A DNA stretch of 64,000 bases from Promethearchaeia archaeon (GTDB lineage Archaea; Asgardarchaeota; Lokiarchaeia; Sigyniarchaeales; SOKP01), in contig JAHQWL010000103.1 of NCBI GenBank assembly GCA_029856155.1, positions 1-64,000 on the forward strand, given 5' to 3'. Below the pieces are notes generated by a model. It had not been told where the DNA came from. It saw only the letters and a list, made by a program, of their open reading frames with translations, and did not search any database. This document shows, piece by piece, positions 47,862-64,000 of this stretch. The number at the start of each line of letters is the position of its first letter. The stretch's first letter is position 1. The translations under genes were made by a program, and so were the position numbers.

Positions 47862-47878
47862 TGAATTTTAAAATTAAA

Positions 47879-48963: not shown

Positions 48964-49182
48964 TCAATAAATTCGAAAATATCTTAATCCTGTATTAATC
49001 CCGCAGACTGTTAATAGAATAATTGAAACAACAACAACTCCTATCATTTTATGACGCTGAAATTGTCCTAAAAATAGCCATCCAAGAATCCCTATAATCA
49101 ATCCAAGCAGTCCGATTATTGAACCTAATGCCAATAGAAATTTAATTGCTTCTCCTATCTGATCAAAATAATCAAACATCAT
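48964..49182 (-). CDS. Small helical-hairpin membrane protein, VirB2/CedA1-pilin-like architecture
   Basis: Amphipathic N-terminus, TM1 LLALGSIIGLLGLIIGILGWLFLG, basic loop QRHK, TM2 MIGVVVVSIILLTVCG. Confidence 0.6.
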   Translation of the reverse strand: MMFDYFDQIGEAIKFLLALGSIIGLLGLIIGILGWLFLGQFQRHKMIGVVVVSIILLTVCGINTGLRYFRIY

Positions 49183-49206
49183 TATACTACTTAATAGGAT
49201 GCTATA

Positions 49207-49251
49207 TTTATAAATAAAAAAAACAAATAGCCGATTATTTTTCTTTAAATA
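49207..49251. promoter_or_regulatory. Back-to-back island promoter motifs
   Basis: Minus strand TTTTTTATTTATAAA (49207-49221, 25 nt from ATG 49182); plus strand ATTTTTCTTTAAATA (49237-49251, 50 nt from ATG 49301). Confidence 0.62.
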
Positions 49252-49300
49252 TTTGAGATTTACTTAAGCTGTAATCAATCAAATATCTTGTATATCTAAT

Positions 49301-49618
49301 ATGAGAAAACTAGAAGAAATTGGTATTTGCCCTAATTGTGATTGTACAATTTCAAGTTTTAAGACCCAAAATTACAAGCGATTTGCTAAATGTGAAATCT
49401 GTGGACTTTCATATGCTTTACCAAAGAAAGGTTCAATAAGTAATTCAGCTTTAATTTGTTCAAAAAATAAATTTCCTTTATTAATTATTGAAAGACAAAA
49501 TCAACCTGCATACTTTTGGACAGATGGTCCATGTTTTAGCTGTGTAAAATATGATAAATGTGAAAATGTGAAAGAATTAATTAATGAATTTAAAGAATTA
49601 CAGGTGTATGGCTATTAA
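49301..49618 (+). CDS. Multi-Cys Zn-finger protein resembling type IA topoisomerase C-terminal Zn ribbons
   Basis: IGICPNC...KRFAKCEICGLSYALPKKG...ICSK...CFSC. Confidence 0.65.
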   Translation: MRKLEEIGICPNCDCTISSFKTQNYKRFAKCEICGLSYALPKKGSISNSALICSKNKFPLLIIERQNQPAYFWTDGPCFSCVKYDKCENVKELINEFKELQVYGY

Positions 49619-50675
49619 GAAGGTCATGTCTATAAAAAATTCTAAGATTCTAATAATACTATTTATAATTATATCTTTCATCTCGCTAACAATTCTCACT
49701 AATTCTATTGGAAACTTTAGTCTTAAAAACAGAGAATCTGTTGAGAAACTACAACCACGTATGAGCGACGGTGAAAAATTAGTGGATAAAGTTTTTAACT
49801 TTACAACTGACAGAGATTATGTGACTTTCTCTAATAATATCTATTTCATTAAACCATATATCTATTATATCTCATTTCAAATCGTAACACCTCATGAATG
49901 TGATATAAATATCTCTTTATGGGATCCTGAAGGTGATAAATATGATATTTATGATAGTCGTCCGAATACAACTCTGTTAACACAATTCGAATATCAAGAG
50001 ATTCCATTCGGAGTATCGCTAACAGGAAATTATACTATAAAATTCCAAGCTCATCTAACAGAAAATCTTAATATTCATATCAAAATTATAAATAGTGGCT
50101 TGCAATGTCTTCAAGATGTTATTGAACCATCAGCTTTTAACAATAAAATTTTTTATCAAGCAAATAAGTTTAAAAATGGAGGGAATAACCCACTACATAA
50201 TGTAACTCTTAAATCAGATACACTATATAGATTCTACTTTGGAAGATATTCCCCTATAGCAGATCTATGTCAGAGTGAGACTAGAATTTTTTTTAATATA
50301 ACATCCTCTAATAATATTGAATACAAAATTTATGTTAATAAAACATTACCAGGTGTTTGTCAAGTAGAATTCTTTGATTTCGGAACTGCCGTGGAAGGGG
50401 GTTATATTATAAATATGACAATTAATTGTATGGTACCTTATGTAAATATTGCATATGCAATTGTAGAGGAAAGTAAAATTGCAGATGGCACTAATCCAAA
50501 TGATCCAGATCCTCCACCTGATGATCCCGTGAATAATACTAAAAGTGGAATCGAAGTTAGTATTCCCGTTCAATTCACTGTCGGAACATTAGCATTCATA
50601 GGATGTATTGTAAGCATACCAATTATAATTGTAGTGTATCAAAAACGAAAAAATCTATCAGGATTGAGTAATTAA
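49608..50675 (+). CDS. Surface protein: signal/TM, two beta-rich repeats, Pro/Asp linker, C-terminal TM anchor
   Basis: ILIILFIIISFISL; PFGVSLTGNYTI and DFGTAVEGGYII repeat ends; DPDPPPDDP; IPIIIVVYQKRK. Confidence 0.75.
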   Translation: MAIKKVMSIKNSKILIILFIIISFISLTILTNSIGNFSLKNRESVEKLQPRMSDGEKLVDKVFNFTTDRDYVTFSNNIYFIKPYIYYISFQIVTPHECDINISLWDPEGDKYDIYDSRPNTTLLTQFEYQEIPFGVSLTGNYTIKFQAHLTENLNIHIKIINSGLQCLQDVIEPSAFNNKIFYQANKFKNGGNNPLHNVTLKSDTLYRFYFGRYSPIADLCQSETRIFFNITSSNNIEYKIYVNKTLPGVCQVEFFDFGTAVEGGYIINMTINCMVPYVNIAYAIVEESKIADGTNPNDPDPPPDDPVNNTKSGIEVSIPVQFTVGTLAFIGCIVSIPIIIVVYQKRKNLSGLSN

Positions 50676-50719
50676 ATATAAGTTAAAAAAATAAATTTCT
50701 TTTTCTTATCATTTTACAT

Positions 50720-51115
50720 ATGGAAAATCTTGAAATTATTTTTTTAGAGTTAACAAAAATCTTAGAAAATAACTCGAGGACCTTTCTAATAAAAGATTAA
50801 TATATTGGTTCTCAAGCTAAGCAAAAAAAGCCCGCATATCATTTGTATGGGAGTAAAGAAGTTAGCTTATTTGGAAAGAAACCGCAACCCACATATATTG
50901 CAGGTGTAATACAACAAAAAAACTATGTAAGCTTTTATTTCTCGCCTATTTATTCGCACCCAGATTCATTCACAGACATCAGTACAGATCTTAAAAAAGT
51001 TTTGAAGGGAAAGTCCTGCTTTAATATGATTAAAATTACGCGTCCTCTTCTCAAGGAAATTGAAGACATCCTAAAGAGGGGAATAGATAAATACAAAGAA
51101 ATTGAGTGGATATGA
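50720..51115 (+). pseudogene. DUF1801/YdhG-like gene with an in-frame TAA
   Basis: ATG 50720 is in frame with the tracked ORF; TAA at 50798-50800; QKNYVSFYF and LKGKSCFN motifs. Confidence 0.6.
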
Positions 51116-51125
51116 ACTTAGATAA

Positions 51126-51506
51126 TTAAACTTTCCCATTCAATTTCAAGGCTGTATTCTGGATATTGGATAAAGAATTGTGGGGATCTGCTTTAGGCAT
51201 GATATAACACACCAGTATCCCTCCCTTAAATGGGACTAACACGACATGCCCATTTCCAGCTTTATCTGTTCCTATTATAGCTTCAGGAGTATTATAGACA
51301 ACCGCAAAATCCACTCCCATTAAATTGAGGGAGTTACTACCCTTGAGTGTATCCAGAATAGTCTTTGATTCTTTGGTTAAATCCCAATTAGCACCTTTTT
51401 GATAAATAATTTTCCCTTTACTCGACATAACGGAAACAGCAGCTACTTTATACCACTCGAGTTCCACTAATTCATCAATGATCTTTTCAACGTCAGTAAT
51501 TACCAT
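51126..51506 (-). CDS. Asgard (Loki-type) profilin
   Basis: IIDELVELE, GKIIYQ..NWDL, GVDFAVVYNTPE.IIGT..GNGHVVLVP, ILVCYIMP; GAGGT SD. Confidence 0.8.
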   Translation of the reverse strand: MVITDVEKIIDELVELEWYKVAAVSVMSSKGKIIYQKGANWDLTKESKTILDTLKGSNSLNLMGVDFAVVYNTPEAIIGTDKAGNGHVVLVPFKGGILVCYIMPKADPHNSLSNIQNTALKLNGKV

Positions 51507-51607
51507 TTGTAATTACCTCAAGTTATTCATTGTTTTTAAACCTAACATAAATAAAATGTAAAGAAAATGATTAGAGAAATTGATAACTAATATTAAAAAA
51601 ATAAGAT

Positions 51608-52837
51608 TTAAGAATTCATTAATGCTTTTGCATTATTTTGCCATTCATTTACTGTCTTTACCGAAGCTCCTGAGATACTAGCTGAAAGTTCTTCTGGATT
51701 TGCTGCTAACAAGTCTGAAACTGTCATAATCCCTTGAGCATTTAAATTCTCTACAGTTCCTTTGCCAATTCCTTTTACTTGAATTAGATTAACTTCCTCT
51801 TGTTCAACAACCTCTTGATCTTGGTTTGTATCATCATCTTCATACAATGTTTCAACTTTAAAATCTAACCCAGATGCCTCTGGAAGCTCACATTTATCTG
51901 TATCTGCGACTCCAGTACCTGTTATGAAAAACTCACATTCTTCAGGGGGTAAGTCGGGAGCATCCACTATAACTGCTCTACGCTTGAGGGAATTATTCGA
52001 AGAGAAACCCTTTGTCTTGAACATGACTCGAAAATGACATCCATGCGCAACAATATTGCCACCAATAGCATCATCTCCGGAAAACATTCCCATCATTCTG
52101 GTAGCTACTTGATTCGTAAGCAAGACCGCACAATTATACGTTTCAGCAACTCGTGATAATCCATGAATCATATTGTTAAGAACTGCTTGACGCGGGGCTA
52201 GCTTTCCAATACCGATGTATTCTGCCCTCAATAATGCCATTAAGCTATCAATTATTATTAAACGAACTCCACGAGTTTTACAAAGAGATTCAGCTTTTTG
52301 GATCATTTGGGCTTGATGATCGGATGAGTAAATCCTTGCATGAAATATTTTTGAAAGTACATCTTTTGGATTTAGTTCAAATCGCTTAGCAATTCGTTTA
52401 ATCTTTTCTTTTGAGAATGTATTTTCAGTGTCAACGTAAGCAACCGCGCCATTTATTCCTCCTTTTTTTTCTGGTAATTGAACCGTTACTGATATTGTGT
52501 GTGCTAAGGCAGTCTTTCCAGACTTAAATGGTCCGTACACTTCCGTTAGTTTTCCAGTTTGAAAACCTCCTCCTAAGATGCGATTTAATTCCGCTGAACC
52601 GGTTGTAAAATATTCTACATTGTCATCAATCTTAGCCGCAGGAGTAAAATCAGTCATACCTAGTGCGTTTCTTGCATTCCATATGAGTTTTTTAGCAGTC
52701 TTATCACCTAATCCATCAATTGTAGCAACAGTTGAATGAGGACTCATCGCTAAAGCTTCCGCTGTGCTTATTCCATTCTCTTGCAATAATTTTATTTGGC
52801 GTGAATTAATTCCTTTCACTTGATCTAAATCTGCCAT
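51608..52837 (-). CDS. radA: RadA/Rad51-family recombinase with an extra C-terminal HhH domain
   Basis: N-terminal HhH domain, FTPA polymerisation motif, GPFKSGKT, YVDTENTF, LIIIDS, TNQV, GGNIVAH. Confidence 0.92.
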   Translation of the reverse strand: MADLDQVKGINSRQIKLLQENGISTAEALAMSPHSTVATIDGLGDKTAKKLIWNARNALGMTDFTPAAKIDDNVEYFTTGSAELNRILGGGFQTGKLTEVYGPFKSGKTALAHTISVTVQLPEKKGGINGAVAYVDTENTFSKEKIKRIAKRFELNPKDVLSKIFHARIYSSDHQAQMIQKAESLCKTRGVRLIIIDSLMALLRAEYIGIGKLAPRQAVLNNMIHGLSRVAETYNCAVLLTNQVATRMMGMFSGDDAIGGNIVAHGCHFRVMFKTKGFSSNNSLKRRAVIVDAPDLPPEECEFFITGTGVADTDKCELPEASGLDFKVETLYEDDDTNQDQEVVEQEEVNLIQVKGIGKGTVENLNAQGIMTVSDLLAANPEELSASISGASVKTVNEWQNNAKALMNS

Positions 52838-52895
52838 TCCTTTTTACTATCAACTCCTTAAAAATAATTTCATTAAGAAGTGTTTCACGCTAGTT

Positions 52896-52910
52896 TATTT
52901 AAAGAAAAAA
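52896..52910 (-). promoter_or_regulatory. Island promoter motif (radA)
   Basis: TTTTTTCTTTAAATA, 59 nt upstream of the ATG. Confidence 0.62.
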
Positions 52911-52936
52911 ATGATGAAAAGAAAAAAAATTAGATT

Positions 52937-53248
52937 TTATGCTTTAGCAATTATTCCTAAGACTCCACCAATTATGGCTAAAATACCTCCAATATGGGCA
53001 GAACTGATAATAACCATTAGGATCCCTAAGATAAGTATTACGACGGGATTATAAGGTAAAGGTTGTCCCGGTTTATACACTGTTAATATTAATAATATAG
53101 TTAAGATGAGTCCAAATATCGCCCACACAATATAATATCCCCAAAAACCATAACCAAAAAATCCAGCAATAGATTCGATTAATCCCACAATACCACCGAG
53201 AATCACAAGAATTTTCATATAATTTTTTAATTCGGCATCAGTTACCAT
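52937..53248 (-). CDS. Small Gly/Ile-rich multi-TM membrane protein
   Basis: Three to four hydrophobic helices. Confidence 0.7.
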   Translation of the reverse strand: MVTDAELKNYMKILVILGGIVGLIESIAGFFGYGFWGYYIVWAIFGLILTILLILTVYKPGQPLPYNPVVILILGILMVIISSAHIGGILAIIGGVLGIIAKA

Positions 53249-53338
53249 AATTCATCAGCTTTTTGGATAATAAGAAGAATTAGAATTTGTATTATTTAAG
53301 AGTAGCTTTTATTGATCATAAATTTTTCAGGTTTTTTA

Positions 53339-53518
53339 TTAATCTTTTATCAAAAAATATGAGATTCCTCCCTGCTCTGAGTCTATACTGAATATTTTAA
53401 AACCGGATTTATCTACATACTTTTCAATATATTGTAACGCTTCTTGAAAGAAATTCTTTTTATCTATTTTTGTTATCTTTGTCTCACTTGAACTGTGGTG
53501 TATTAATTGTTGAGCCAT
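53339..53518 (-). CDS. Small hypothetical protein
   Basis: Likely start MAQQ at 53518. Confidence 0.5.
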   Translation of the reverse strand: MAQQLIHHSSSETKITKIDKKNFFQEALQYIEKYVDKSGFKIFSIDSEQGGISYFLIKD

Positions 53519-53690
53519 TCTGGCTAAAAAAATTATTTCAATTTTTATTTTTATCACATCCTTTTAATATAAATAATTCAATTTGATTTTTTTAACATCA
53601 ATAAGAGAAAGTTAGATATATATTTTTATCCTAAATTTCTCTAAACACAAATAATGTCAATGAAGAGAAACAAATTATAATTTTAACTGT

Positions 53691-54377
53691 TTATTGAAAC
53701 TGATTTAATATATCAAAAAGTTTATCTATTTGTTCTTTATTAGCAGTCAGAGTCGTCTTCCCATCAACTAAATCATAACTTATTTTTCGCCCACTCCTTC
53801 TTAAATTAGAGAGTTGTTTTACTGGAAACATATATCCAAAACATTTTTCTGAAGTGTCATATAAAAATTCTTTTTCTTTTTTATTTTCTTCATGTATATC
53901 GCGTCCAGTTAGAAGTAAACCATCATCGGAAACATCTACAAGTGTTTTGGTTTGTATAAGTTCGTTAATAGTAAGTTTCCCCTGTACAATGATTCTTTGA
54001 TTGGTAATAAAAATTACTCCCAAACTTACTGAGATTTTAATGGACGGTGCTTTTAATGGTCTTTTTTTCTTAATCGACCCCTCACATTCATACAGGATTT
54101 GTTCTCCACCATGTAAGCAAAAATTTTCAACAATATATCGTTCTGCTCGAATTCTCCCTTCTTTTCCTAGCAGTTTGCCCATTTTTTTCCAAATATTTGA
54201 ATATAATTTATTCATAAAAAATAGAGGATTTAGTTTATATGTCTCACCTATGCTATTAAGAAATTCAAAATCATAAAGTTGTAATTTATATAAAAAATTG
54301 AGAATCTTTTTCTTTGAGGGATACGTCTTTTTAAGTTCTTTTTCAATTTTATTCATAGCTAGACTGACATCACTCAT
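53691..54377 (-). CDS. Hypothetical protein with PH/GRAM-like region
   Basis: GEQILYECEG...GVIFITNQRIIVQG. Confidence 0.55.
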   Translation of the reverse strand: MSDVSLAMNKIEKELKKTYPSKKKILNFLYKLQLYDFEFLNSIGETYKLNPLFFMNKLYSNIWKKMGKLLGKEGRIRAERYIVENFCLHGGEQILYECEGSIKKKRPLKAPSIKISVSLGVIFITNQRIIVQGKLTINELIQTKTLVDVSDDGLLLTGRDIHEENKKEKEFLYDTSEKCFGYMFPVKQLSNLRRSGRKISYDLVDGKTTLTANKEQIDKLFDILNQFQ

Positions 54378-54550
54378 TTTGATTCCCTACTAATTATTTC
54401 GCCAAACAATGCAAATTCCACTATATAAAATTATAAGATTATTTTTATACATTTTGGCTTTATTTGGACAATTTAAATCCGAATCCTGTGCAAGGATTAT
54501 CATCCAATAATTACCATTTTTTTATTGGAATCATTTTTTTGGGAAAATTT

Positions 54551-54778
54551 CTAAGATTTTTCACTATCTATCAATAAATAAATCACAAATAAACCAGCTA
54601 CTATGATAAAAAAAATTCCTGCCCAGATTGCACCCCACTCTACAGGCTTTACAACCGGTTCGCCTGGAAGGTAGATTCTTCAACTCACCGTGCCTAGAGT
54701 AATTAGCCCCCATAAACCTGCGATTATGAATATACCGATAAATAATAAAACTAAATTTTTAATGATTTTTCGAGACAT
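54551..54778 (-). pseudogene. Small two-TM protein gene with an in-frame TGA
   Basis: MSRKIIKNLVLLFIGIFIIAGLWGLITLGTVS-TGA(54680-54682)-RIYLPGEPVVKPVEWGAIWAGIFFIIVAGLFVIYLLIDSEKS*; TATA about 20-25 nt upstream. Confidence 0.55.
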
Positions 54779-54854
54779 CTGAATTTATTGTTTTATATAT
54801 AAATTTGAATTAATTTATTGAAAGTTGAATAAAAATATAAATTCTGACATTAAT

Positions 54855-54929
54855 GAGAAAAAGAAAAGAAAAAATCACCCCCCTTTTTCCCTGCAGAGGT
54901 GATTAAATGGGTTGGGAGGAAGTTATATT
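54855..54929 (-). ncRNA. Candidate small RNA with C-rich/anti-SD segments, hairpin and U-tail
   Basis: Island motif at 54953-54967; CUUCCUCCC; stem AAUCACCUC/GGGGUGAUU; UUUUCUUUUCUUUUU. Confidence 0.4.
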
Positions 54930-54976
54930 ATAAATTAAATTACTATTAATTGTATTTAAAGAAAAAATAGGCTAAC

Positions 54977-55363
54977 TTATTCAAGTAAAATTCTCAGACC
55001 TTGAACAAACTGCTTAGGGGTAATACCATTTAATAAAGCTTGATGCATATATTTGATGTGTAGCTCTTCAACATTTTCTTTATTTTCAACTTTAGAAGCT
55101 ATTTGTTTTAGTAGATTATATAGTGAGAAATCTGAATTTTCTAACATACCAAAATACCCTCCATATGCCAGGAACATGTTAGCCATAAGCTCAAGATCCT
55201 CTTGTGAGTTTTTTTTATAGCATTGCTCACAGACAACTCCGAATGTAAGACCTTCTTGATATATTGACGCTCCTCGCTTAAGATTGTTTCTGCAAATCCC
55301 ACATCTTACTGCTTCTTGAGTAAGATGGGGTGTTGGTTCCGTACTTAGGGAATTTATTTCCAT
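54977..55363 (-). CDS. Zn-finger (CxxC...CxxC) protein
   Basis: CGIC...CEQC; motif ATTTTTCTTTAAATA at 55385-55399, 22 nt upstream. Confidence 0.7.
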   Translation of the reverse strand: MEINSLSTEPTPHLTQEAVRCGICRNNLKRGASIYQEGLTFGVVCEQCYKKNSQEDLELMANMFLAYGGYFGMLENSDFSLYNLLKQIASKVENKENVEELHIKYMHQALLNGITPKQFVQGLRILLE

Positions 55364-55406
55364 GAAGTATCTATATAACCAGAGTATTTAAAGAAAAATT
55401 AATGGA

Positions 55407-56114
55407 TCAACAGAGGGATAAGCCATTATTACCTATTAAGAATTGAAAATTCCACTTTAATCGATTGAATGAAATGAACATATTTTTTTTTTCACTATTA
55501 CAAACATTGCTTAAGACAACATCTATTGTTTCTAATCTATCGTATAATTTATAAAAGAAAGGCCTAACTCTTTCTTGGCTAGGACTATAAGTAACTTCAT
55601 GAATCAAAACCAATACAATATCATTTCGTTTACAAAACAATATTAATGGTAATAATTGTGTTTCATAAAAGCTATCTAGTAATACTAGGCAATTCAAATT
55701 AGTGAATTGAGTAATTTCAAATCGTAAATGGTGAGAGATATTATCAATAACGATACATTTTAAGTCTGGAGGAAGAACTGTAGAGGGTGATGTAATTTTT
55801 TGTAGTATTGAAGATTGTTCTAAATATGTAGGAATAGGATTATCTTGAGGGATAATAAACACATTCTCCGTAATATAATCCAATTTCTCAGGATAATCAG
55901 CTAAAATTTGTCTTAATCGCTTTACAGGGAAAGCTTCATTTGCTTGAACCCAGATACATGATTCTTTATAAGGTTCTTCTGATGTTAAAAGATTCCCAAC
56001 TAATTGAAGGGCAAGAGTAGTTTTACCAGTACCAGACTTTCCAGAGATAGATAGTATATTATTATGAGATAGTAATTCCTTAATCCCTATGAAAAATCTT
56101 ATTTCTGAGAGCAT
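55407..56114 (-). CDS. RadB/Rad51-paralogue-like RecA-fold ATPase
   Basis: Walker A GKSGTGKT, FPVKRL, Walker B CIVIDN; no N-terminal domain. Confidence 0.78.
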   Translation of the reverse strand: MLSEIRFFIGIKELLSHNNILSISGKSGTGKTTLALQLVGNLLTSEEPYKESCIWVQANEAFPVKRLRQILADYPEKLDYITENVFIIPQDNPIPTYLEQSSILQKITSPSTVLPPDLKCIVIDNISHHLRFEITQFTNLNCLVLLDSFYETQLLPLILFCKRNDIVLVLIHEVTYSPSQERVRPFFYKLYDRLETIDVVLSNVCNSEKKNMFISFNRLKWNFQFLIGNNGLSLC

Positions 56115-56115
56115 C

Positions 56116-56460
56116 TTAGTTTTCTTCTAGTAATTCAAGCACTTCTTGTTTTATCTTATCTATTTGCTTATCCTTTTCTGCTTTTTCATCATTTCTGTTT
56201 GTATTATCATTATTTTGAGAAGAATTATTCATTAATTGCTGGATTACCATCAAAGTAATTAAATCATCCATTCTACTGCCTTGCTGAGCATTTTTTCCAC
56301 TAAAGAATCCAAAAACTCCATTATTTGACCCTGAAGATCTGGATTTAAAAAATAAATATACTCCAATAAACAACACTATGAAGATAATAGAATAAACTGG
56401 ATTTTGCTGGTAAAAGATAAAAAATCCTAAAATCAATACGATATAACAGAATCCTTTCAC
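56116..56460 (-). CDS. Membrane protein (two N-terminal TMs, cytoplasmic coiled tail)
   Basis: Tightly packed between the peptidase and RadB-like genes. Confidence 0.7.
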   Translation of the reverse strand: MKGFCYIVLILGFFIFYQQNPVYSIIFIVLFIGVYLFFKSRSSGSNNGVFGFFSGKNAQQGSRMDDLITLMVIQQLMNNSSQNNDNTNRNDEKAEKDKQIDKIKQEVLELLEEN

Positions 56461-56467
56461 TTTTTAA

Positions 56468-57208
56468 TCACCATTCGGTATGTGGTTTTTTTGGTTTATA
56501 ATGTTTACGAGTAAAAGGTTTCATTCTGACCTTTGGGGGTTTTTTATAATCTCTCGAATGTAATATATCCAAAGTTTTGTGTATGCCAATAAAACTGAAT
56601 TTCAATAATAAGTAAAGTCCGGCAATTGCTAAATAATAAAAGACATCTAATAAGAAGTAAATCTGAAAGGTTGCTAAGATCAGCCATAAGATTATTGTTG
56701 AAAGGATAACAAGAAATATCTGATACCATGAATGTGTAGAGTCATCCCTGAATGCTCTCGAAATCATTCTAAAATCTCCTGAAGATGGTGCTGCCGTCAA
56801 AAGTAATGAAAAAGAAATAAATCCCGCAAAAACTCTAATAATTGGTAGAAATTGGGGATTGAATACCACTCCAAACCACAAATAAAAAATAAGCCATGTA
56901 CTTAAATATAGGGGAGCGAAACTTATTAGAAATGTCTGTAGAAAACTTAGAGGTTTTCCAGGTTTAACTAATCCACGCGGATTTCTAGATCCATCTTTTT
57001 CATTATGCCACTTGATCTCGATACGATCGGGAACATGTCCAACTACCAAGCTCATGAAATAATGACAGAATTCATGAAAAATAACTCCTATAAAAAATAA
57101 ACGTATAGTAATGGATTTAAATAGACCTGCGTTGTCACTCAATAAAAAACGTGATACAATAAGAGATATAATTAAGATGCCAAGGAATACTAAAGGTTCT
57201 TCAATCAT
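56468..57208 (-). CDS. Membrane zinc metalloprotease (M50B/DUF3267-like)
   Basis: FHEFCH (HExxH), ISFAPL, APSSGD; likely ATG 57208, 22 nt from motif TTTTTCCTTTAAATT (57230-57244). Confidence 0.75.
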   Translation of the reverse strand: MIEEPLVFLGILIISLIVSRFLLSDNAGLFKSITIRLFFIGVIFHEFCHYFMSLVVGHVPDRIEIKWHNEKDGSRNPRGLVKPGKPLSFLQTFLISFAPLYLSTWLIFYLWFGVVFNPQFLPIIRVFAGFISFSLLLTAAPSSGDFRMISRAFRDDSTHSWYQIFLVILSTIILWLILATFQIYFLLDVFYYLAIAGLYLLLKFSFIGIHKTLDILHSRDYKKPPKVRMKPFTRKHYKPKKPHTEW

Positions 57209-57598
57209 GCAATAATATAGTACCAAAGTAATTTAAAGGAAAAATCCAATCTTTTTGTTAAATTTTTGTTTTTTTTTGGGGTGATCTTGGATATTATATT
57301 TCTGAAGCGGGAGAATTCTAATAACAAGGGTTTCATATTTTAATGACAGTGTATGTAAAATGCAAAACGAATTAATGAGCTATATTAAGCTTGAATGGAG
57401 AATTGTCTATAGAGATTGTTCCCCCATGAAATCTGGTCAATTATTGGCGAGATAATTAAGAATCGCAACCTCTAGTTATATTGACAAAAATGTCAGTGAT
57501 CGATAAAATGCAAATTTTCTAGAAATTTTTGTGAACAGTTGAAAACCACCTCTCAAAATTTAAGAGAAGAAGCCTTCTTTTCACCGTTCAATTTTTGA

Positions 57599-57613
57599 GG
57601 AAAAGGTTTAAAA
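57599..57613 (+). promoter_or_regulatory. Canonical purine-rich BRE + TATA upstream of the tfb paralogue
   Basis: GGAAAAGGTTTAAAA, ~45 nt upstream of GTG 57658. Confidence 0.55.
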
Positions 57614-57657
57614 TCAAAACTCCTACCTTATATTCTTTAGTAAAATAAAAAAAAATA

Positions 57658-58911
57658 GTGATCAAAACATTGGCAACGTATAAAACACTACAAGAAAGTA
57701 GACTTTCTCCTGATTTGGCACACTTATCTTGCGATATTTGTGGTTCTGCTGATATTTTAGAAACTAGAGAGGGGTATGTGTGTAAAAAATGTGGTGTAGT
57801 ATTAGAAATCCAGAAATTGCAATATGATAGACCTTATAATGAAGACATAATCCAATATGCAAAGGGCGTAGGCACAACTCAAATAGGAACAAGGCGAGAA
57901 AGGGCGATCTCGCCTCTTTCTATTAAATTGCAAAGAATAAACAAATACAATTCTATAACCACCACTGAACGAGCTGTAATTGAGAAAGCTCGGATTGAAA
58001 TTGCGAGAATCTTTAATTATTTAGGTTTAGATGGTGGATATGATGCTATAAAAGAAATGGTATTATCCAAGTTCAAAAGCCTTAGAGCTCACATTAGGTC
58101 AGGTTCAAAATATAGAAGTGTAGAGAAGTTAGTTTCAATCACAATTTATTTCTGTCTTAAACTTAGGAATGTTTCTATTAATCCATATGAGTTGATTGAA
58201 ATATCGAAAATTACAAAAAAGGAGTTCAATGATTTCAACTTACAACTTCAAAGATTTTTACCCCATTATGCCGAACGTAATAGGCAGAAATATATTCTAC
58301 AGAGGATTTTTGAACTTTCTGAACATTTTGATTTAGGAATGCCTTTTTATTATCTTTCTAAAAAGATTTTATATAGATTGTGGCATGGAATCAAAAATAC
58401 GACAGATAATGTAGTAGCAGGATTAATCAGTTCTATTTCAGTTTTATGTTCATGCAAAGATAAGGTAAGTATAAGTTCTATTTGTAATCGTTTAGGAATC
58501 AGAATGAGTACAATTCAATCTCAGGTCAAGAAAAGGATCTTTGAAAGGTTTCAAGGTGAAGGATTTATCAGTCTAATAAAATCGTCTGATATTTTAGTAC
58601 GATTAATGAAAAGGTTAGGACTTTTGGGAGAACAAGCAATCGAAACTCAAGAAGAGACTTGCATATCTGATAAGGAAGAGATTATAATGGGTAATGCTGC
58701 CAATATATTTAACGGTCATGATAATTTTGACTATTATTATTACGCGATGAGGGGAGAAAACAAAAAACCCTTAATCGTCACTTTAAAAATTAATGAATTT
58801 CCTTTGATGTTTAAATCTGAAAAAAAGTCGAAAATGAAACCCGATTATTTACTTAATTTTGAAATATTTCATTATTATTGTTCAAAAGATCCTCCTAAAA
58901 TAGGTACTTGA
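57658..58911 (+). CDS. tfb: Divergent transcription factor B (TFB/TFIIB) paralogue
   Basis: Zn ribbon CDICGS...GYVCKKCGVVL; cyclin repeat 1 (RSVEKLVSITIYFCLK...ELIEISKITKKEF); cyclin repeat 2 with HTH SISSICNRLGIRMSTIQ; ~100-aa C-terminal extension. Confidence 0.8.
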   Translation: MIKTLATYKTLQESRLSPDLAHLSCDICGSADILETREGYVCKKCGVVLEIQKLQYDRPYNEDIIQYAKGVGTTQIGTRRERAISPLSIKLQRINKYNSITTTERAVIEKARIEIARIFNYLGLDGGYDAIKEMVLSKFKSLRAHIRSGSKYRSVEKLVSITIYFCLKLRNVSINPYELIEISKITKKEFNDFNLQLQRFLPHYAERNRQKYILQRIFELSEHFDLGMPFYYLSKKILYRLWHGIKNTTDNVVAGLISSISVLCSCKDKVSISSICNRLGIRMSTIQSQVKKRIFERFQGEGFISLIKSSDILVRLMKRLGLLGEQAIETQEETCISDKEEIIMGNAANIFNGHDNFDYYYYAMRGENKKPLIVTLKINEFPLMFKSEKKSKMKPDYLLNFEIFHYYCSKDPPKIGT

Positions 58912-59032
58912 CAGTCAGTATAGATAAGAACTAATTTTTAAAATTTTTTTTATTTTCTTTGATTCCTACTAAAATTCTGATTTAATTTTTTAAGTTGGAG
59001 GGATCTACCTTTATATCTTTATATAAAATAAA

Positions 59033-59389
59033 TTACTTATCCTGGTGTTTCTTTTTACTTTCTACTAAAATTTCTTCTATCATGGTTTTTAAATTAGGAA
59101 TACTATTTTTGATTGTTGTCCAAACTAACTTATAATCAATACCAAAATATGAATGAATTAATCTATCTCTCATTCCTGCCATTTCTTTCCAAGGAATTTT
59201 GGGATATTTTGTCCTTGTATCATCAGTAATATTTTTTGTAGCTTCTCCAAGTATTTCAAACTTCCTAATAACTGCACTTGAAGTTTTATCATCTTCTTGA
59301 AATTCTTCGAATGTCATGTTTTCAACGAACTCTATAATTTTATTAATAGATTCAATGATATCTTTTAAATATATATTTTGATTTCTCAT
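59033..59389 (-). CDS. HEPN (DUF86, HepT-like) toxin
   Basis: IPWKEMAGMRDRLIHSYF (RxxxxH). Confidence 0.92.
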   Translation of the reverse strand: MRNQNIYLKDIIESINKIIEFVENMTFEEFQEDDKTSSAVIRKFEILGEATKNITDDTRTKYPKIPWKEMAGMRDRLIHSYFGIDYKLVWTTIKNSIPNLKTMIEEILVESKKKHQDK

Positions 59390-59688
59390 GAATAGATTAC
59401 CGTTTTTAAAATCGAATCTTTTAATTCTTCCCTTAATGCATTTATTGGTACAACATCCACTTTACATCTAAATTTTTCCTCAAGAAATAGAGAAAGCCCA
59501 ATGAAATCAAATAGATCTGCATCTTCTCCAAATTCAACAAGTAAATCGATATCACTAATATCCTTATGTGTTTCACTCGCATAGGATCCAAATAAACCTA
59601 ATTCTTTGACTTTATACTTATCTTTTAATATTTTTTTCAGATTAGTAAGTGTCTTAAGAATCTCTTTTTTGCTTAGCATCTTTAACAA
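59386..59688 (-). CDS. Minimal nucleotidyltransferase (MntA-like) antitoxin
   Basis: LFGSYA...SDIDLLV...KVDVV; ATGA overlap with the toxin gene. Confidence 0.92.
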   Translation of the reverse strand: MLKMLSKKEILKTLTNLKKILKDKYKVKELGLFGSYASETHKDISDIDLLVEFGEDADLFDFIGLSLFLEEKFRCKVDVVPINALREELKDSILKTVIYS

Positions 59689-59902
59689 ATCATTTTATAC
59701 TCTGTTATTATAAATATACAATTTTTAATATTTTAATGATACATGTTTAGATTGTAATGCTAATGTTATATATTATCCTTTTTAATTTCATAATTAAATC
59801 TATAGAAAGAATTATTGTATAGATAGTTTGGATTAGATATTGGATTTCTTTTGTTATCTCTCTTTAATTTTTTTATTTTCTATGAATGTTGTAGCGTATT
59901 GA

Positions 59903-59917
59903 TTTTTTGTTTAAATA
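59903..59917 (+). promoter_or_regulatory. Island promoter motif in a divergent region
   Basis: TTTTTTGTTTAAATA, identical to 46669-46683; 55 nt upstream of ATG 59972. Confidence 0.62.
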
Positions 59918-59971
59918 AGTTCGCTATAATTCTAACAGTAACCTCTTATAACTTATGTAGAATCGAAGAAA

Positions 59972-62950
59972 ATGAATAATAAAAAAGTCCTTTTTGTGAG
60001 TATTATAGTTGTTTTGATGTTAAGCATTAGTATATTTCACTCCGATATTTCTAAGAGTTTCACTCTAGCAAGTGAAAATTTTGCATATGGCGAAATAGAG
60101 TATCCAGAATTAGCTTCTTCAAGCAATAATGAAATCATCAATTCTATTTTTGATGCAAGAGTATCTGACTATTCTGATTTGGGGTATTTCCCTCAGATCT
60201 ATGAACCTTCAATACAAGCAACCTATTATGCCCTCTTCATTTTTGATGCGATTGGAAAACTGAACCACATAAATCAATCTGAAATAATCAATTACATTAT
60301 GTCTCAATATGATGGAAGTTCAAACAGATTTATGGATACATTAGCATATCGATATTTAGATACTGACTTCTCCAAAACGTATTTTCCCTTAAATTCTATT
60401 TTAGAAGTTAATTGTTATGCTATTCTTTCTTTAAATATATTAAATCGCACAGACTTATTTAATACGCAAGGAATGATCGATTTCATTTGGGATTGTTATA
60501 ATCCAGAAACAAGTGGCTTTATTGGACAGCCTTACAGTGCAGAATTAGAGGAGGGATTTAGAGTTTCAACAGCAGATAATACATTTTTTGCGGTATTTAC
60601 ACTCAACTTATTGATGGATAATTGGGTGGGGTACTCCTCTAAAATACAAGATATAATTCAATATATAAATAATTTACAATATCCTGGAGGATTAGGTTGG
60701 ATGGGAGGGGGATTTCGAAATGATGATAATACTTTTGTTGATACTTTGAATCCCTTTTTTGAGCCCAATCTAATTTCTTCTTATTACTGCATAAAAGCAT
60801 TAGAGATATTTGGTATGGAAGAATCTATAAATATTGTTGATTTTCACCAATTTCTTGATTATCTGTATGATTCAAATTCTAACTATTTTCGAATATCTGA
60901 GTGGGATTACGGTGTGAATTATACTAACGTAGTTGCAACCGCTCTTGGATTAGAACTTTCAGATATCACTAGCTATGGAAATATCGATAGAGATGATGCA
61001 ATTGCGTTTATTATGGGGAATCGGAATTCTTTTGGAAATTGGGATGAGTCCACCATAGTTAAAATTCATGAATTAATTGATACCTTTCAAATTATCCGAT
61101 CTCTGAGAAATAGTAATGAAACCTCTCAGTTCTCATTGGAAGCAAAAAATCAAATAGGAAACTCAACCTTAAGTTACTCTTCTTATGAAGTGTATTCTCT
61201 GCTTTCAGATGATTACACTTCTATGAGTTATTTGCACACGATAATTTCTTCATTTTCATTATTTGATCGTATTTCAGATTTAGAGATTCAAGAGCTTTAT
61301 ACGCGTATTAAAAATTCTTATATTGATTTTGCTGATTTTGGGATAAGTCGATATTTTTATGGTTATCTCTTAGATGAAACTGAGATACTTTGGTTCCGAT
61401 CTCATCCAATTGAATATTATACTTCAGGCCATAAAAATTACCTTAAAGATATTTCTCAGCTGAATTCTCATAAATCCACATATTTCGCACTAGAGTCTTT
61501 GCAAAAGCTCTTTAAGTTGGATGATTTTGCTACAGAATTTGATCTTATGAGTTTAGTAAACGATATCGTTGATACTCAATTTTTAAATGATACGTATTAC
61601 GAAAATTATGGGGGTTTTTCACCGATTTTAAAGTATGATGTTGACCGATCAGAGTACCTCAATACGATGATTTATTGCGAATATACTTATTATGCTTTAA
61701 GATGTTTAGAGATCCTTTCTAATTATCTGACTCTTAATATTACCGATTTAGGATTCGATATTACAGCATTATATACATATCTTAATAGAAATACTATCGA
61801 GAATACTGAAACTCTTTACTTCAATCCAAGTTATACATCAGATGTTGAGACTATCTTACAAAATACCTATTACATGATCTATATTATGAAAATGTTGAAT
61901 TTATATGACAAAAATACTGAAAAAATCGAAAATTACGTAGAAAATAACCTCAACTACAATAATATTAAGAATATTTATTATAGCTATAAGATCTCAGAAA
62001 TATTAGGCTTGGATATTAGTTTTGATATTAGCTTAACTCAAGATTTAATACAAAGCATCTATTCTGAAGAAAGAGAAGAATTTTACTTAACACCTGATAA
62101 AATAAAAATAGAATTAGACACTTTTTTATGGATCTCTGAGATGGCGAGGAATAGTCAAATTGGAATTAATGCTCAATATTGTAGTCAAGTTCCATTAGGG
62201 GGAGTTAACCACATGGAAGTCTCGCTGTCTAATCTTATTGTGAGAGATTTTGGTTCATATATTTCCTTTAAATTTGAAAGTGACCAAATAGGGACTATTA
62301 ATTTTAATAAACTAGAAAATAATATTTATGTAGCAGATGTACCAATTCCAATGAATTCTGAAAATTATCCTATAGTTGCAGGAGTATTGTATGCCTATGA
62401 AGGAGCACGGGTAAAAGCCGAGTATAACGTCATTTTTAATACCATATATTCTTTAGCCTATAATCTTAATATATCAAAAACTGCGTCTAAAGTAAAATTT
62501 GAAGTAAATGGTTCAATATTAGCCAATGAAAATGAATACGCCTTAATTAATGGAAGTGTTTATACTGTGATCTACAAAGATGACATAATAATTGCCACAC
62601 AAAATTTCGGGCATATTAATCTCAATGAATCGAGTATATTTATTCTTGAATATATACCAATAGAAAATGGTTCTTACTATTTTGAGATTTACCTTGAAGA
62701 TGGATTTCAAGAATCGGAAGTCGAAATCGGAAACACATTATTCATCAAAAACGTCGATAACCCCCATGATCCCGATGACCCTGATGATCCCGACGATCCT
62801 ATTAATTCACACCAAAATTATGAAGAGAGCATTAAAACAGCAATCCCTCTCATGATTGCTTTTATAGGAGTACCTGGATGTGTTATCGCGATATCCTCTA
62901 AACAACTTGGTAAGGTTAAAAAACGACCAGAATACAACAATTCAAAGTAA
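59972..62950 (+). CDS. Large surface protein with prenyltransferase/squalene-cyclase-like alpha/alpha repeats and C-terminal TM anchor
   Basis: Signal peptide; repeated TYYAL..L, GGF, SGF motifs; DPHDPDDPDDPDDP linker; C-terminal TM plus basic tail. Confidence 0.8.
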   Translation: MNNKKVLFVSIIVVLMLSISIFHSDISKSFTLASENFAYGEIEYPELASSSNNEIINSIFDARVSDYSDLGYFPQIYEPSIQATYYALFIFDAIGKLNHINQSEIINYIMSQYDGSSNRFMDTLAYRYLDTDFSKTYFPLNSILEVNCYAILSLNILNRTDLFNTQGMIDFIWDCYNPETSGFIGQPYSAELEEGFRVSTADNTFFAVFTLNLLMDNWVGYSSKIQDIIQYINNLQYPGGLGWMGGGFRNDDNTFVDTLNPFFEPNLISSYYCIKALEIFGMEESINIVDFHQFLDYLYDSNSNYFRISEWDYGVNYTNVVATALGLELSDITSYGNIDRDDAIAFIMGNRNSFGNWDESTIVKIHELIDTFQIIRSLRNSNETSQFSLEAKNQIGNSTLSYSSYEVYSLLSDDYTSMSYLHTIISSFSLFDRISDLEIQELYTRIKNSYIDFADFGISRYFYGYLLDETEILWFRSHPIEYYTSGHKNYLKDISQLNSHKSTYFALESLQKLFKLDDFATEFDLMSLVNDIVDTQFLNDTYYENYGGFSPILKYDVDRSEYLNTMIYCEYTYYALRCLEILSNYLTLNITDLGFDITALYTYLNRNTIENTETLYFNPSYTSDVETILQNTYYMIYIMKMLNLYDKNTEKIENYVENNLNYNNIKNIYYSYKISEILGLDISFDISLTQDLIQSIYSEEREEFYLTPDKIKIELDTFLWISEMARNSQIGINAQYCSQVPLGGVNHMEVSLSNLIVRDFGSYISFKFESDQIGTINFNKLENNIYVADVPIPMNSENYPIVAGVLYAYEGARVKAEYNVIFNTIYSLAYNLNISKTASKVKFEVNGSILANENEYALINGSVYTVIYKDDIIIATQNFGHINLNESSIFILEYIPIENGSYYFEIYLEDGFQESEVEIGNTLFIKNVDNPHDPDDPDDPDDPINSHQNYEESIKTAIPLMIAFIGVPGCVIAISSKQLGKVKKRPEYNNSK
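62761..62800 (+). repeat. 9-bp-period coding repeat (Pro-Asp-Asp linker)
   Basis: ccccatgat cccgatgac cctgatgat cccgacgat cct. Confidence 0.7.
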
Positions 62951-63004
62951 GAATAACAAATTCTAAATTTTTTCTTTTTATTTTATCATTTTATTCTTCT
63001 GTTA

Positions 63005-63607
63005 ATGACTTCAGATATGGATTCCTACGACAATAAAATATCACATCGGAATACAATTCACTTAATCACCCAAATTTTGGATATTTTGGGAAAATATAGT
63101 GATAATTATGAGAAAAAGTTAAATTTTACTAGATTAATGCAACACCTAAAAATCCCAACTTCTGAGATTGACGAATTTGTTTCTTTAATATTACATTTTC
63201 AAGAAACATTCGAACATGTCTTTAAGGAATATCGAATAAAGAAAAAAAGACAAAATAGCCAAGTATTTCTAACCGTAGAAAACAAAATCAAAGATAAAAC
63301 ACCAAGAATAATTAAGATTTTGTCTTCTCATTTAAATCTTTTTAATGACATTGTCTATACATTCAAATTTGTAAAGAGGGGAAAAGGTTTTGATACTTCT
63401 AAGAACGATTCAGAATTATTGACAAATCTAAAAGAGTTAAAAATTAAACATCCTTATCTTTTTGATCCACATGAAAATGGAGTTATTTATCCATCAGAAT
63501 TAGGGCTCAAGTTTGGGGAACTCATCATTTCATATAACAAAAGTAATAGAAAAATTAAAAATATGCAAATCGAAAATTATACGTTTATTGTGGAGGATGA
63601 TGGGTGA
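63005..63607 (+). CDS. Hypothetical protein (possible winged helix), coupled to hef
   Basis: 200 aa; overlaps the hef start; motif-like TTTTTTCTTTTTATT at 62968-62982. Confidence 0.6.
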   Translation: MTSDMDSYDNKISHRNTIHLITQILDILGKYSDNYEKKLNFTRLMQHLKIPTSEIDEFVSLILHFQETFEHVFKEYRIKKKRQNSQVFLTVENKIKDKTPRIIKILSSHLNLFNDIVYTFKFVKRGKGFDTSKNDSELLTNLKELKIKHPYLFDPHENGVIYPSELGLKFGELIISYNKSNRKIKNMQIENYTFIVEDDG

Positions 63608-64000
63608 AATAAAAGAAGTAACAAATGAGACATCAAATCTTAATTCTAATGAACTTCAAATACGAGATTATCAAATAAATATCGCAGATAATTGTGTGAA
63701 AAAAAATTCGTTAGTAGTATTGCCAACTGGACTTGGAAAAACTATAATTGCAGTGTTAGTGGCAAATAAAATATTGAACATTTTTCCTCCTCATAGCAAA
63801 ATAATAGTGCTCGCTCCTACACGGCCTTTAATAAATCAACATTATGAGACATTTTTGCGATTCTTAAATATCCCGAAAGAAAAATTTGCAATTTTAACAG
63901 GGAAGATTCTTCCTGAAAAGAGAATAGCTAGTTTTAATGACCATGAGATTCTATTTTATACTCCTCAGACATTACGAAATGATTTAGTTCAAAAAAAATA
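63600..64000 (+). CDS. hef: Hef/FANCM (ERCC4-related) SF2 helicase, partial (runs off window)
   Basis: Read manually: GGAGG SD, MGEIKE...IRDYQINI...NSLVVLPTGLGKT...LAPTRPLINQH...TPQTLRNDL. Confidence 0.9.
   Translation, partial: MGEIKEVTNETSNLNSNELQIRDYQINIADNCVKKNSLVVLPTGLGKTIIAVLVANKILNIFPPHSKIIVLAPTRPLINQHYETFLRFLNIPKEKFAILTGKILPEKRIASFNDHEILFYTPQTLRNDLVQKK

Follow-up and report, generated by a model that had tools for sequence, protein, structure and literature searches.

Several TFBs per archaeon are common, but to our knowledge there are few clear cases in which one paralogue recognizes a core-promoter element of another kind. In the Sulfolobales, TFB3 is a TFB paralogue of the DNA-damage regulon, with its Ups pili and Ced DNA import, and it acts though it is not a full initiation factor. 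In Sulfolobus acidocaldarius, TFB2 drives a wave of cell-division genes from promoters in which the BRE resembles that of TFB1 promoters and the main difference lies in BRE-TATA spacing (bioRxiv 10.64898/2026.09.06.749720).

By analogy, the gene described here would belong to this known kind, the specialised TFB paralogues exemplified by Sulfolobus TFB2 and the haloarchaeal TFBs. It was found in a 64,000-nt stretch of DNA from a Promethearchaeia archaeon (GCA_029856155.1, contig JAHQWL010000103.1, positions 1-64,000, forward strand; GTDB lineage Archaea; Asgardarchaeota; Lokiarchaeia; Sigyniarchaeales; SOKP01), hereafter the window. What draws attention to it is that the DNA-reading helix of the factor and the BRE slot of its neighbors both depart from the norm, and that the two travel together in many genomes.

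The gene is part of a conserved island whose length is 31 kb or more. The island occupies 39287..64000 of the window and continues to ~70.7 kb of the contig; the contig stops before the right border. Island genes encode an NYN RNase, an Arf GTPase, an RPA-like OB protein, a FEN1-like protein, a RadA paralogue, a KaiC/RadB-like ATPase, a 992-aa prenyltransferase-toroid protein, and two SF2 helicases, along with small conserved proteins without assigned function that include zinc-ribbon proteins, and a 202-aa protein. We propose that the divergent TFB is a dedicated initiation factor for this recombination and repair island, and we give the proposed mechanism as a whole about an even chance of being right.

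Anatomy of the divergent TFB

In the list of open reading frames the gene spans 57658-58911 (+ strand) and encodes 417 aa counted from GTG 57658, the numbering used for residues throughout. The true start is most likely TTG 57670 (CDS 57670..58911, + strand), because an invariant Shine-Dalgarno-like AGTGATC precedes it (57657..57663, + strand; 6 nt 5' of the TTG and unchanged in 12 orthologues) and because the orthologues, which carry ATG, GTG, or TTG at this codon, open there with MATYK.

The protein belongs to the TFB/TFIIB family and has diverged strongly within it. The earlier note had described an intact Zn ribbon and two cyclin repeats, and both stand. The ribbon, C25-x2-C28 ... C42-x2-C45 (57730..57792, + strand), has four cysteines (CDIC...CKKC) that are invariant among 89 relatives, and its strands are modelled as beta at residues 33-42 by AF2; the Pfam model PF08271 gives it 24 bits, below the cut-off of 29. 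Since PF00382, the Pfam model of the cyclin repeat, is absent from the protein in a Pfam scan, the repeats are invisible to the standard sequence model, and searching PDB sequences directly with phmmer turned up no useful match. The AF2 model (mean pLDDT 78, core >90) places five plus five helices at residues 103-200 and 209-295. Together with structure alignment it defines a first cyclin fold at residues 103-205 (57964..58272, + strand); profile and structure define a second at residues 209-295 (58282..58542, + strand), with a helix-turn-helix at 272-295. Superposed on Pyrococcus woesei TFBc (1d3u_B), the model scores Z 18.4 with an rmsd of 3.0 over 196/201 residues (VIA-align), and its best structure matches are all TFIIB, TFB, or Brf. 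An hhalign comparison with the 10 canonical TFBs of the same genome agrees (probability 97%, E 8.6e-11), covering residues 22-291 and thus ribbon, linker, and both cyclin folds, with the ribbon paired to canonical TFB ribbons.

A double-cyclin, TFIIB-like fold is also found in Orc6 (8s0b_F, Z 12.4; 6kvg, Z 11.5), and with RadA, RPA-like, FEN1-like, and helicase genes as neighbors, the protein could have a role outside transcription, for example as an Orc6-like DNA-binding adaptor of the island's replication and recombination machinery. We regard this as very improbable: matches to TFB and TFIIB reach much higher scores (Z 16-18), and the protein has a TFB-type zinc ribbon and linker, both of which Orc6 lacks.

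The linker that occupies the place of the B-reader and B-linker (57799..57957, + strand) has the sequence LQYDRPYNEDIIQYAKGVGTTQIGTRRER, against GPEWRAF...G.xT.I in canonical TFBs. Though rewritten, this linker is very strongly conserved within the family, and its length is similar to that of the canonical one. No canonical (G)PEWRAF-type B-reader motif is present, the stretch that hhalign aligns to it being YDRPYNEDIIQY; with the EWRAF consensus lost, function at the start site may differ. Model residues 60-324 superpose on TFIIB of initially transcribing complexes (8s51_M, Z 17.4), with the reader and linker region included.

Beyond the cyclin folds lies a C-terminal extension (58585..58908, + strand) composed of a helix at 310-319, an acidic low-confidence linker, and three beta strands within 359-405, with a near-invariant K(D/G)PP at the very end. 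In the divergent TFB, 125 residues follow the recognition motif and ~98 follow the last core helix, compared with 7-15 residues after the motif in the seven canonical TFBs that our search pattern matched. The extension, ~100 aa in the earlier note, thus comes to about 100-125 residues. Searches with the extension found no Pfam or NCBIfam match and no usable Atlas feature match, and Atlas and PDB fold searches with the whole protein were dominated by the TFIIB core, with no fold match for the tail. The beta domain could possibly serve for signal input or for binding a partner.

An extra domain without known function and a lost B-reader consensus would also suit a protein that does not initiate, such as a decoy or modulator competing for RNA polymerase or TBP, or a co-activator of a canonical TFB, for which TFB3 of the Sulfolobales is a precedent. 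This protein differs from TFB3 in having retained both cyclin folds together with a conserved helix-turn-helix, and the strong conservation of a linker that has been rewritten suggests a specific retained contact. On balance, we find a role without initiation improbable and continue to favor an initiation factor.

The helix-turn-helix of cyclin fold 2 also departs from that of the canonical TFBs in the same genome. The altered string quoted in the earlier note, SISSICNRLGIRMSTIQSQVKK, corresponds exactly to residues 271-292 and is paired by hhalign with the canonical RTQKEISIAAGVTEATIRNRYK. Its recognition-helix segment GIRMSTIQSQVKKRI (residues 281-295; 58498..58542, + strand) takes the place of canonical VTEVTxRNRYK. 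The (V/I)TEVTxRxRYK consensus of cyclin fold 2 is absent from the divergent TFB, and (V/I)TE(V/A)TxRxRx(K/S) is kept by all ten canonical TFBs of the genome, consistent with what the earlier note had seen. In place of the consensus stands IRMSTIQSQVK, near-invariant in ~340 relatives. Across 89 sequences with identity down to 27%, residues I281, M283, S284, and Q289 reach 90% conservation or more, and position 285 is T in 80. The best-conserved parts of the protein over the same 89 sequences are the ribbon, the linker, and the cyclin fold 2 helix, a pattern that points to a working factor in contact with DNA and RNA polymerase and argues against a decaying copy. As the genome encodes 10 canonical TFBs with standard helices and 3 TBPs elsewhere, the divergent copy is not the housekeeping factor.

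T-rich promoters of the island

Promoters in the island fill the BRE slot with T5-6(C/G/A) directly before the TATA box, giving T5-6(C/G/A)TTTAWAWA; on the opposite strand, the T-run element reads as a GAAAAA-type BRE. The strict form TTTTT[CG]TTTAWAWA occurs 44 times in 4.1 Mb, and 8 of these copies fall at 42.5-60 kb, where 0.24 would be expected (P ~2e-10); ~35 copies sit outside the island. T-runs outnumber A-runs before TATA by 11:2 in the island, against 62:202 elsewhere (Fisher P 1e-5). For most copies, a gene start follows at a distance of 21-58 nt.

Two of these promoters flank the divergent TFB gene. On one side, TTTTTCCTTTAAATT (57230..57244, - strand) serves the divergently transcribed operon from 57208 to 54977; on the other, TTTTTTGTTTAAATA (59903..59917, + strand) serves the downstream 992-aa gene. 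Another, TTTTTCTTTAAATA (55385..55398, - strand), lies 21 nt before ATG 55363, a leaderless spacing, and the RadA paralogue has its own at 52896..52911 (- strand). Further copies are found at 42536-42550, 45978-45992, 46669-46683, 47997-48012, and 49207-49223 on the minus strand and at 49238-49251 on the plus strand.

TFB touches 6-7 bp with the helix-turn-helix of its second cyclin fold (PMC4581349), and the T-run fills exactly those positions. One reading is a private promoter code of this Asgard lineage: an inverted, T-rich BRE, of which the ten ordinary TFBs make poor use, would be recognized by a TFB whose DNA-reading helix has been rewritten and which has gained a sensor or partner domain. 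We hold this specific reading tentatively, at somewhat less than an even chance. Covariation between helix and promoter motif was sought in a genus with the helix variant INYQ and in metagenomic outliers, and the motif was unchanged: relatives whose helix reads INYQ, ASTVNAR (VNAR), or YTVQGY (TVQGY) adjoin the same T5-6C-TATA motif. The altered helix residues may consequently not be what reads the T-run; recognition could instead depend on its shape, on other residues, or on a different protein. The earlier proposal of a TFB rewired for T-rich promoters is partly supported: the TFB fold, the rewritten helix conserved across the family, and the co-occurrence with the T-run island stand, and the search for covariation was negative.

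The missing covariation also lends some weight to the view that the protein is an island transcription factor whose helix does not read the T-run at all. The T-run could then be a structural or "anti-BRE" tract that bars canonical TFBs or sets DNA bending, an exclusion role that suits the reverse complement of a purine BRE. Alternatively, it could be read by one of the island's several other small conserved proteins, such as a zinc-ribbon protein or the 202-aa protein, with the TFB-like protein acting alongside or afterwards. Against this stand the fit of the T-run to the base pairs contacted by the helix-turn-helix, the conservation of the helix, which ranks with the best-conserved segments in the family, and the finding that the divergent TFB is the island gene most consistently found near motif clusters. 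We consider such an arrangement unlikely, if less so than a role as decoy, and retain as our working model a divergent TFB that joins TBP at the T-run promoters.

Distribution across genomes and control of the gene

The divergent TFB family is present in 53/68 genomes of the window's own GTDB family and in 0/233 genomes from other families of the phylum. In 19 other genomes from several genera, we counted 100 strict motif copies no more than 20 kb from the orthologue, where 4.0 are expected, and the same enrichment is seen beside very divergent members. The refuting condition named in the earlier note, retention of the motif in genomes that lack the gene, did not refute the proposal: 8 of the 10 gene-negative genomes examined have no cluster, and in the 2 that have one the contig breaks off within the island, right where the gene would lie. 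An island marker gene was also absent from 4/5 gene-negative genomes checked, and no intact island without the divergent TFB gene was found among the genomes examined. Background numbers of the motif persist in genomes without the gene, and gene copy number shows a weak correlation with genome-wide motif count (Spearman 0.36), to be read beside 0.25 for a reversed-pattern control and with kin that are not independent. Co-location and co-occurrence of this sort are equally expected of any island gene. In the sister family, which includes a closed 4.4-Mb genome, the family profile matched canonical TFBs only, and a search for the 992-aa neighbor did not find it. As a single anecdote from that family, one orthologue of an island gene has a promoter without a T-run.

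Several genomes hold more than one copy of the divergent TFB. One (G171) carries four 90%-identical copies of the gene with its upstream region outside any island, with few motifs nearby, and the deepest-branching member of the family (P0209) has neither an island nor the motif around the gene. Such dispersed copies of gene plus promoter, the great diversity of a family confined to one taxonomic family, and the genes left of the island, which are not conserved between genomes, would suit a mobile element, either the island or the gene alone, with the factor as a take-over tool in the manner of a phage sigma factor. We think this highly unlikely: no integrase, capsid, or replication-initiator genes were seen inside the island or at its left border, and gene order in the island is kept across genera while identities drop with distance from the window's genome. 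A resident factor that serves the island remains our preferred reading.

The gene's own promoter differs from those around it. Its core (57597..57614, + strand) joins a purine-rich, BRE-like GAGGAAAAGG to the TATA box TTTAAAAT, is kept in 12 orthologues, and is neither T-rich nor a carrier of the island motif; from the usual archaeal spacing, transcription is predicted to start near 57637. The canonical BRE-TATA claimed earlier for this gene holds in the window's genus, where the BRE is purine-rich, and fails in the most distant genus. "Canonical" here refers to purine-richness and to the genome-wide ratio of A-runs to T-runs before TATA, as tRNA upstream regions, crude ORF starts, and TFB and TBP genes yielded no clean signal for a general BRE consensus of the organism.

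The upstream region, first put at about 450 bp, measures 431 nt if counted to the start that the ORF list gives the divergently transcribed gene, and 461 nt once the starts are corrected. The box CTCCTACC(T/C)TATATTC (57620..57635, + strand) lies downstream of the TATA box and ahead of the predicted start; it is retained even in a genus whose protein is 34% identical, and it could act as an operator or belong to the stretch of DNA that melts first. About 110 nt 5' of the TATA box, the palindrome TGACA-N4-TGTCA (57482..57495, + strand) is a candidate regulator site: its arms are conserved among orthologues, its spacer varies, and only one other TGACA-N4-6-TGTCA match exists in the 4.1-Mb genome. 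An imperfect palindrome, GAGAAGAAGCCTTCTTTTC (57564..57582, + strand), sits 5' of the BRE-like element at a position conserved in orthologues. Rfam had no match in 57100-57750, and for the 230 conserved nt upstream RNAalifold gave a weak consensus (-5 kcal/mol) with little covariation; with no support for an RNA structure, we read the palindromes as DNA sites.

The divergent TFB and known initiation factors

Because the gene sits in an island whose promoters share a T-rich box, the divergent TFB is probably the island's own on-switch, judging from sequence. In the mechanism we propose, the ordinary machinery would transcribe the gene from its own purine-rich BRE/TATA promoter with its conserved operator-like boxes, and the near-cognate start codon and conserved 5'UTR suggest that it is probably held low or repressed. 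Once produced, the factor would pair with TBP at island promoters bearing T5-6(C/G/A) in the BRE slot and use its zinc ribbon and its rewritten reader and linker to bring in RNA polymerase, and the island would thereby be turned on as a single unit. The purine-rich promoter and the conserved operator-like boxes fit a cascade of this kind. The terms "master regulator" and "sigma-like cascade" used in the earlier note still express what may be inferred from location, co-occurrence, and anatomy, and we likewise infer the binding to TBP, T-run, and RNA polymerase and the direction of regulation.

If the reading as a private promoter code is true, no archaeal TFB before this one would have been shown to differ in BRE specificity. 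The host group comprises the archaea closest to eukaryotes, and confirmed binding would provide a simple example of promoter-class switching by a eukaryote-like basal machinery. It would also mean that spare recombination genes are co-regulated, with DNA damage or DNA exchange as conceivable triggers, and would offer an orthogonal promoter-factor pair for archaeal genetics.

The best structural match is the core of P. woesei TFBc bound to TBP and BRE-TATA DNA (1D3U, 1AIS). Identity to the archaeal TFB/TFIIB core is only 13-16%, and the Pfam TFIIB model misses the protein. Compared with that core, the divergent TFB has IRMSTIQSQVK for VTEVTxRNRYK, DRPYNED for the B-reader EWRAF, and about 100-125 extra C-terminal residues, and its likely target promoters bear a T-run in place of the purine-rich BRE.

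Like TFB2, it is an additional TFB that has both cyclin folds and a probable special task; service to a defined gene set and tight regulation of its own are, for the divergent TFB, predicted. It differs in that the BRE slot of the island promoters is of another sequence class, and in that TFB2 activates its own gene, whereas the promoter of the divergent TFB is free of the island motif. The function of TFB2 is experimental; the divergent TFB is known from sequence and predicted structure. Like TFB3, it is a TFB-family paralogue tied to a DNA-repair or DNA-exchange gene set, but TFB3 is truncated to a zinc ribbon plus coiled-coil, without the cyclin-fold core, whereas the divergent TFB has both folds and an added domain.

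In having a ribbon, two cyclin folds, and a C-terminal extension, the protein also recalls Brf1/Brf2 and Rrn7/TAF1B, and Brf1 and Brf2 chains score Z 13-16.5 against the model. Its tail, in contrast to that of the Brf factors, is beta-rich with a K(D/G)PP end, and the BRF1 homology block PF07741 had no match in it at E up to 1. The family is confined to a single Lokiarchaeia family and is accordingly an innovation of that lineage, not the source of the eukaryotic factors.

Bacterial and phage sigma factors are a different protein family with a different mechanism, initiation here being TBP-dependent, and the analogy to them is functional only. What would be alike is an extra initiation factor, a change in the element that is read, and a class of promoters that the housekeeping factor uses poorly. 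If true, the divergent TFB would amount to a sigma-factor-like switch for a recombination and DNA-exchange program built from a spare RadA, RadB-like, RPA-like, and FEN1-like proteins, helicases, and a small GTPase.

A divergent TFB and its rewritten parts

The window is AT-rich (G+C about 29%) and belongs to a contig of 71.7 kb, in a genome of 4.1 Mb that is 97% complete. Its ORF at 57658-58911 (+) encodes 417 residues that standard sequence models barely detect. Pfam placed the TFIIB zinc ribbon below threshold (24 bits against a cutoff of 29) and gave no match to the TFIIB cyclin repeat, an NCBIfam search left a trace of PRK00423, and a PDB sequence search returned no useful match, so the two cyclin repeats claimed in the earlier note needed proof. 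They were borne out by an AlphaFold2 model built from an alignment of 89 relatives (mean pLDDT 78; core above 90), in which a ribbon and a linker lead into two sets of five helices and one additional helix, followed by three C-terminal strands modeled with lower confidence. Its best structural matches were without exception TFB, TFIIB, or Brf, headed by the Pyrococcus woesei TFB core in complex with TBP and BRE-TATA DNA, 1d3u_B (Z 18.4, rmsd 3.0, 196/201 residues), and a family profile aligned with the genome's canonical TFBs from ribbon through last helix at 97% probability. The protein is a real, very divergent member of the TFB family.

All ten full-length canonical TFBs encoded elsewhere in this genome keep (V/I)TE(V/A)TxRxRx(K/S) in the last helix, and the seven that our search pattern matched end 7 to 15 residues past it. 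At the aligned position the TFB-like protein reads IRMSTIQSQVK and then continues for 125 more residues, so the altered recognition helix and C-terminal extension described from the sequence are real. In the profile alignment, the canonical reader motif GPEWRAF has become YDRPYNED. Across 89 relatives with identity down to 27%, conservation reaches at least 90% for the four cysteines (the zinc ribbon is intact, as had been noted), parts of the linker, I281, M283, S284, Q289, and a C-terminal K(D/G)PP, and position 285 is T in 80 of 89. This conservation argues against decay of the rewritten parts.

In a TFB phylogeny, a single branch with full support and great length (about 3.8 changes per site) splits the TFB-like family from three canonical subfamilies, each of which the sister family also has. 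The tree sets the family apart, but its origin cannot be read from it. The basal-factor repertoire of this genome is itself large, with ten full canonical TFBs in three subfamilies (contigs C34, C75, C59, C26, C72, C1, C88, C14, C71, and C84), one TFB fragment, and three TBPs (contigs C28, C71, and C88).

The gene island and its T-run promoters

The island spans contig positions from about 39.3 kb to at least 70.7 kb, and its genes are found again beside the ortholog in up to 20 other genomes. They encode an NYN RNase protein, an Arf-family GTPase, an RPA-like OB-fold protein, a FEN1-like nuclease, a RadA/Rad51 paralog, a KaiC/RadB-like ATPase, a 992-aa protein with a prenyltransferase-toroid domain, two SF2 helicases (one with archaeal helicase domain 4), and several small uncharacterized proteins. 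The island annotation showed neither an integrase nor virus-like genes. Directly behind the TFB-like gene, a HepT-like RNase and MNT nucleotidyltransferase toxin-antitoxin pair (59033-59688, -) is a strain-level insertion, since none of the 20 genomes compared has it there. The PLP-dependent enzyme (PALP) and hexapeptide acyltransferase at 42774-44556 (-), shared with the closest relative only, are likewise an accessory, strain-level insertion.

From 42.5 to 60 kb, at least 10 transcription units are preceded by T5-6(C/G/A)TTTAWAWA, in which the T-run plus C/G occupies exactly the BRE slot; read from the sequence, TTTTTTC is the reverse complement of a GAAAAAA-type purine BRE. Most copies lie 21 to 58 nt upstream of a start codon and point toward it, and two have leaderless spacing. 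In the genome as a whole, the strict form TTTTT[CG]TTTAWAWA has 44 copies, eight of which fall within this 22-kb stretch (0.24 expected; P about 2e-10); a ninth is found past these on the same contig. Before the same TATA pattern, the ratio of T-runs to A-runs is 11:2 in the island versus 62:202 elsewhere (P 1e-5). Two island-type copies, at 54953-54967 (-) and 47997-48012 (-), lack a sizeable ORF immediately downstream, one lying about 570 nt from the next gene; their products may be small RNAs or small peptides.

Of 68 genomes sampled from the window's GTDB family, 53 had a match to the TFB-like protein as query (E up to 1e-10), under varying public labels (Lokiarchaeota, Promethearchaeota, and others); the 233 genomes sampled across 29 other families of the phylum had none. 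A search of the sister family turned up canonical TFBs only. Within 20 kb of the ortholog in 19 other genomes, the strict motif was present 100 times, where the totals of the individual genomes predict 4.0. The test proposed in the earlier note, whether genomes without the factor retain the motif, did not refute its model: among ten match-less genomes examined, eight had no motif cluster, and in the two with clusters the island contig ends exactly at the expected gene slot. A marker gene of the island was also missing in four of five cluster-less genomes tested, and the fifth, G252, carries part of the island on a short contig, where the motif precedes the marker gene. No intact island without the TFB-like gene was found among these ten. 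Such an absence is a prediction of a dedicated-factor model, and any obligate island gene would equally show it. In G094, a sister-family genome without the TFB-like family, an ortholog of island gene 41936-42484 (L091, 1460-1497) has a leaderless-spaced TATTTTAAG box with no preceding T6C element, a single case.

The promoter of the TFB-like gene

Orthologs start MATYK with ATG, GTG, or TTG at the codon equivalent to TTG 57670 in the window, and most use TTG or GTG, not ATG (A3 alignment). An invariant AGTGATC lies 6 nt 5' of the start codon in a highly conserved 5'UTR, and together with the near-cognate starts this suggests that translation may be low or controlled.

The gap upstream of the gene measures 431 to 461 nt, in agreement with the roughly 450 bp claimed earlier, and its last ~190 nt are 72 to 80% identical in DNA among orthologs whose proteins share just 57 to 74%. 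Conserved elements include a palindrome, TGACA-N4-TGTCA (here TGACA-AAAA-TGTCA; 57482-57495, +), with invariant arms and a free spacer in close orthologs and a single further TGACA-N4-6-TGTCA match in the 4.1-Mb genome; a second, imperfect palindrome at 57564-57582; the gene's own core promoter, GAGGAAAAGG plus TTTAAAAT, at 57597-57614; and a CTCCTACC(C/T)TAT box that separates the TATA box from the predicted start (57620-57635, +; also at loci L066, L058, and L074), retained even in a genus whose TFB-like protein is 34% identical. Because the CTCCTACC box is a GC-rich block in a region that must melt, it may be an operator or built-in brake. These conserved elements give the TFB-like gene a promoter of its own that is purine-rich, not T-rich, and carries likely regulator sites, which fits a factor that is itself switched. 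The BRE-TATA that had been called canonical is purine-rich and conserved at 57597-57614, but in the most distant genus the TATA box is preceded by a stretch that is not rich in purines.

Possible readers of the T-run and comparison with known factors

Covariation of helix variants with the promoter motif was sought in one genus and in metagenomic members, and none was found. The genus with helix MSTINYQ has the T-run-C/A-TATA motif alongside, unchanged; a metagenomic member with ASTVNAR sits in a typical island beside the same motif, and a member with YTVQGY adjoins it. Because different helices stand beside one motif, the residues singled out in the earlier note may not be those that read the T-run, and the missing covariation somewhat weakens the proposal that the rewired helix does so. 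Conserved S284, T285, and K291 could read the T-run instead, as could recognition through the narrow groove of the T-tract or another protein. Two small paralogous zinc-ribbon proteins, at 39287-39550 (+) and 48049-48273 (-) and conserved in the island in 6 to 7 genomes, are possible alternative readers or partners.

Genome-wide motif counts rise weakly with gene copy number. Genome G171 carries four copies, about 90% identical in DNA, dispersed on four contigs outside any recognizable island, each including 300 to 700 nt of upstream DNA (L043/L044, L101-L104), a pattern that looks like a small mobile cassette or a recent duplication of gene and promoter together. Near the deepest-branching member, there is no island and no motif.

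The best reading, at about even odds, is that the TFB-like protein serves the island as a dedicated initiation factor and is itself expressed from a promoter that is ordinary but regulated. The sigma-like cascade first proposed is partly supported: the separate non-T-rich promoter and the co-occurrence with the island hold up, and the reading of the T-run by the helix stays a proposal.

No published description of this family or of the T-run promoter class was found in the literature. Likeness to Brf- and Rrn7-type factors is limited to having a tail: the TFB-like protein has no BRF1 block, and its family is confined to one Lokiarchaeial family. It is also unlike TFB3, because it keeps both cyclin folds. 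The protein would work most like a specialized TFB paralog, and the closest experimental case is Sulfolobus TFB2, which serves a gene wave and is itself regulated (bioRxiv 10.64898/2026.09.06.749720). Promoters of TFB2 have a housekeeping-like BRE with altered spacing (bioRxiv 10.64898/2026.09.06.749720), whereas those of the island carry a T-run in the BRE slot.
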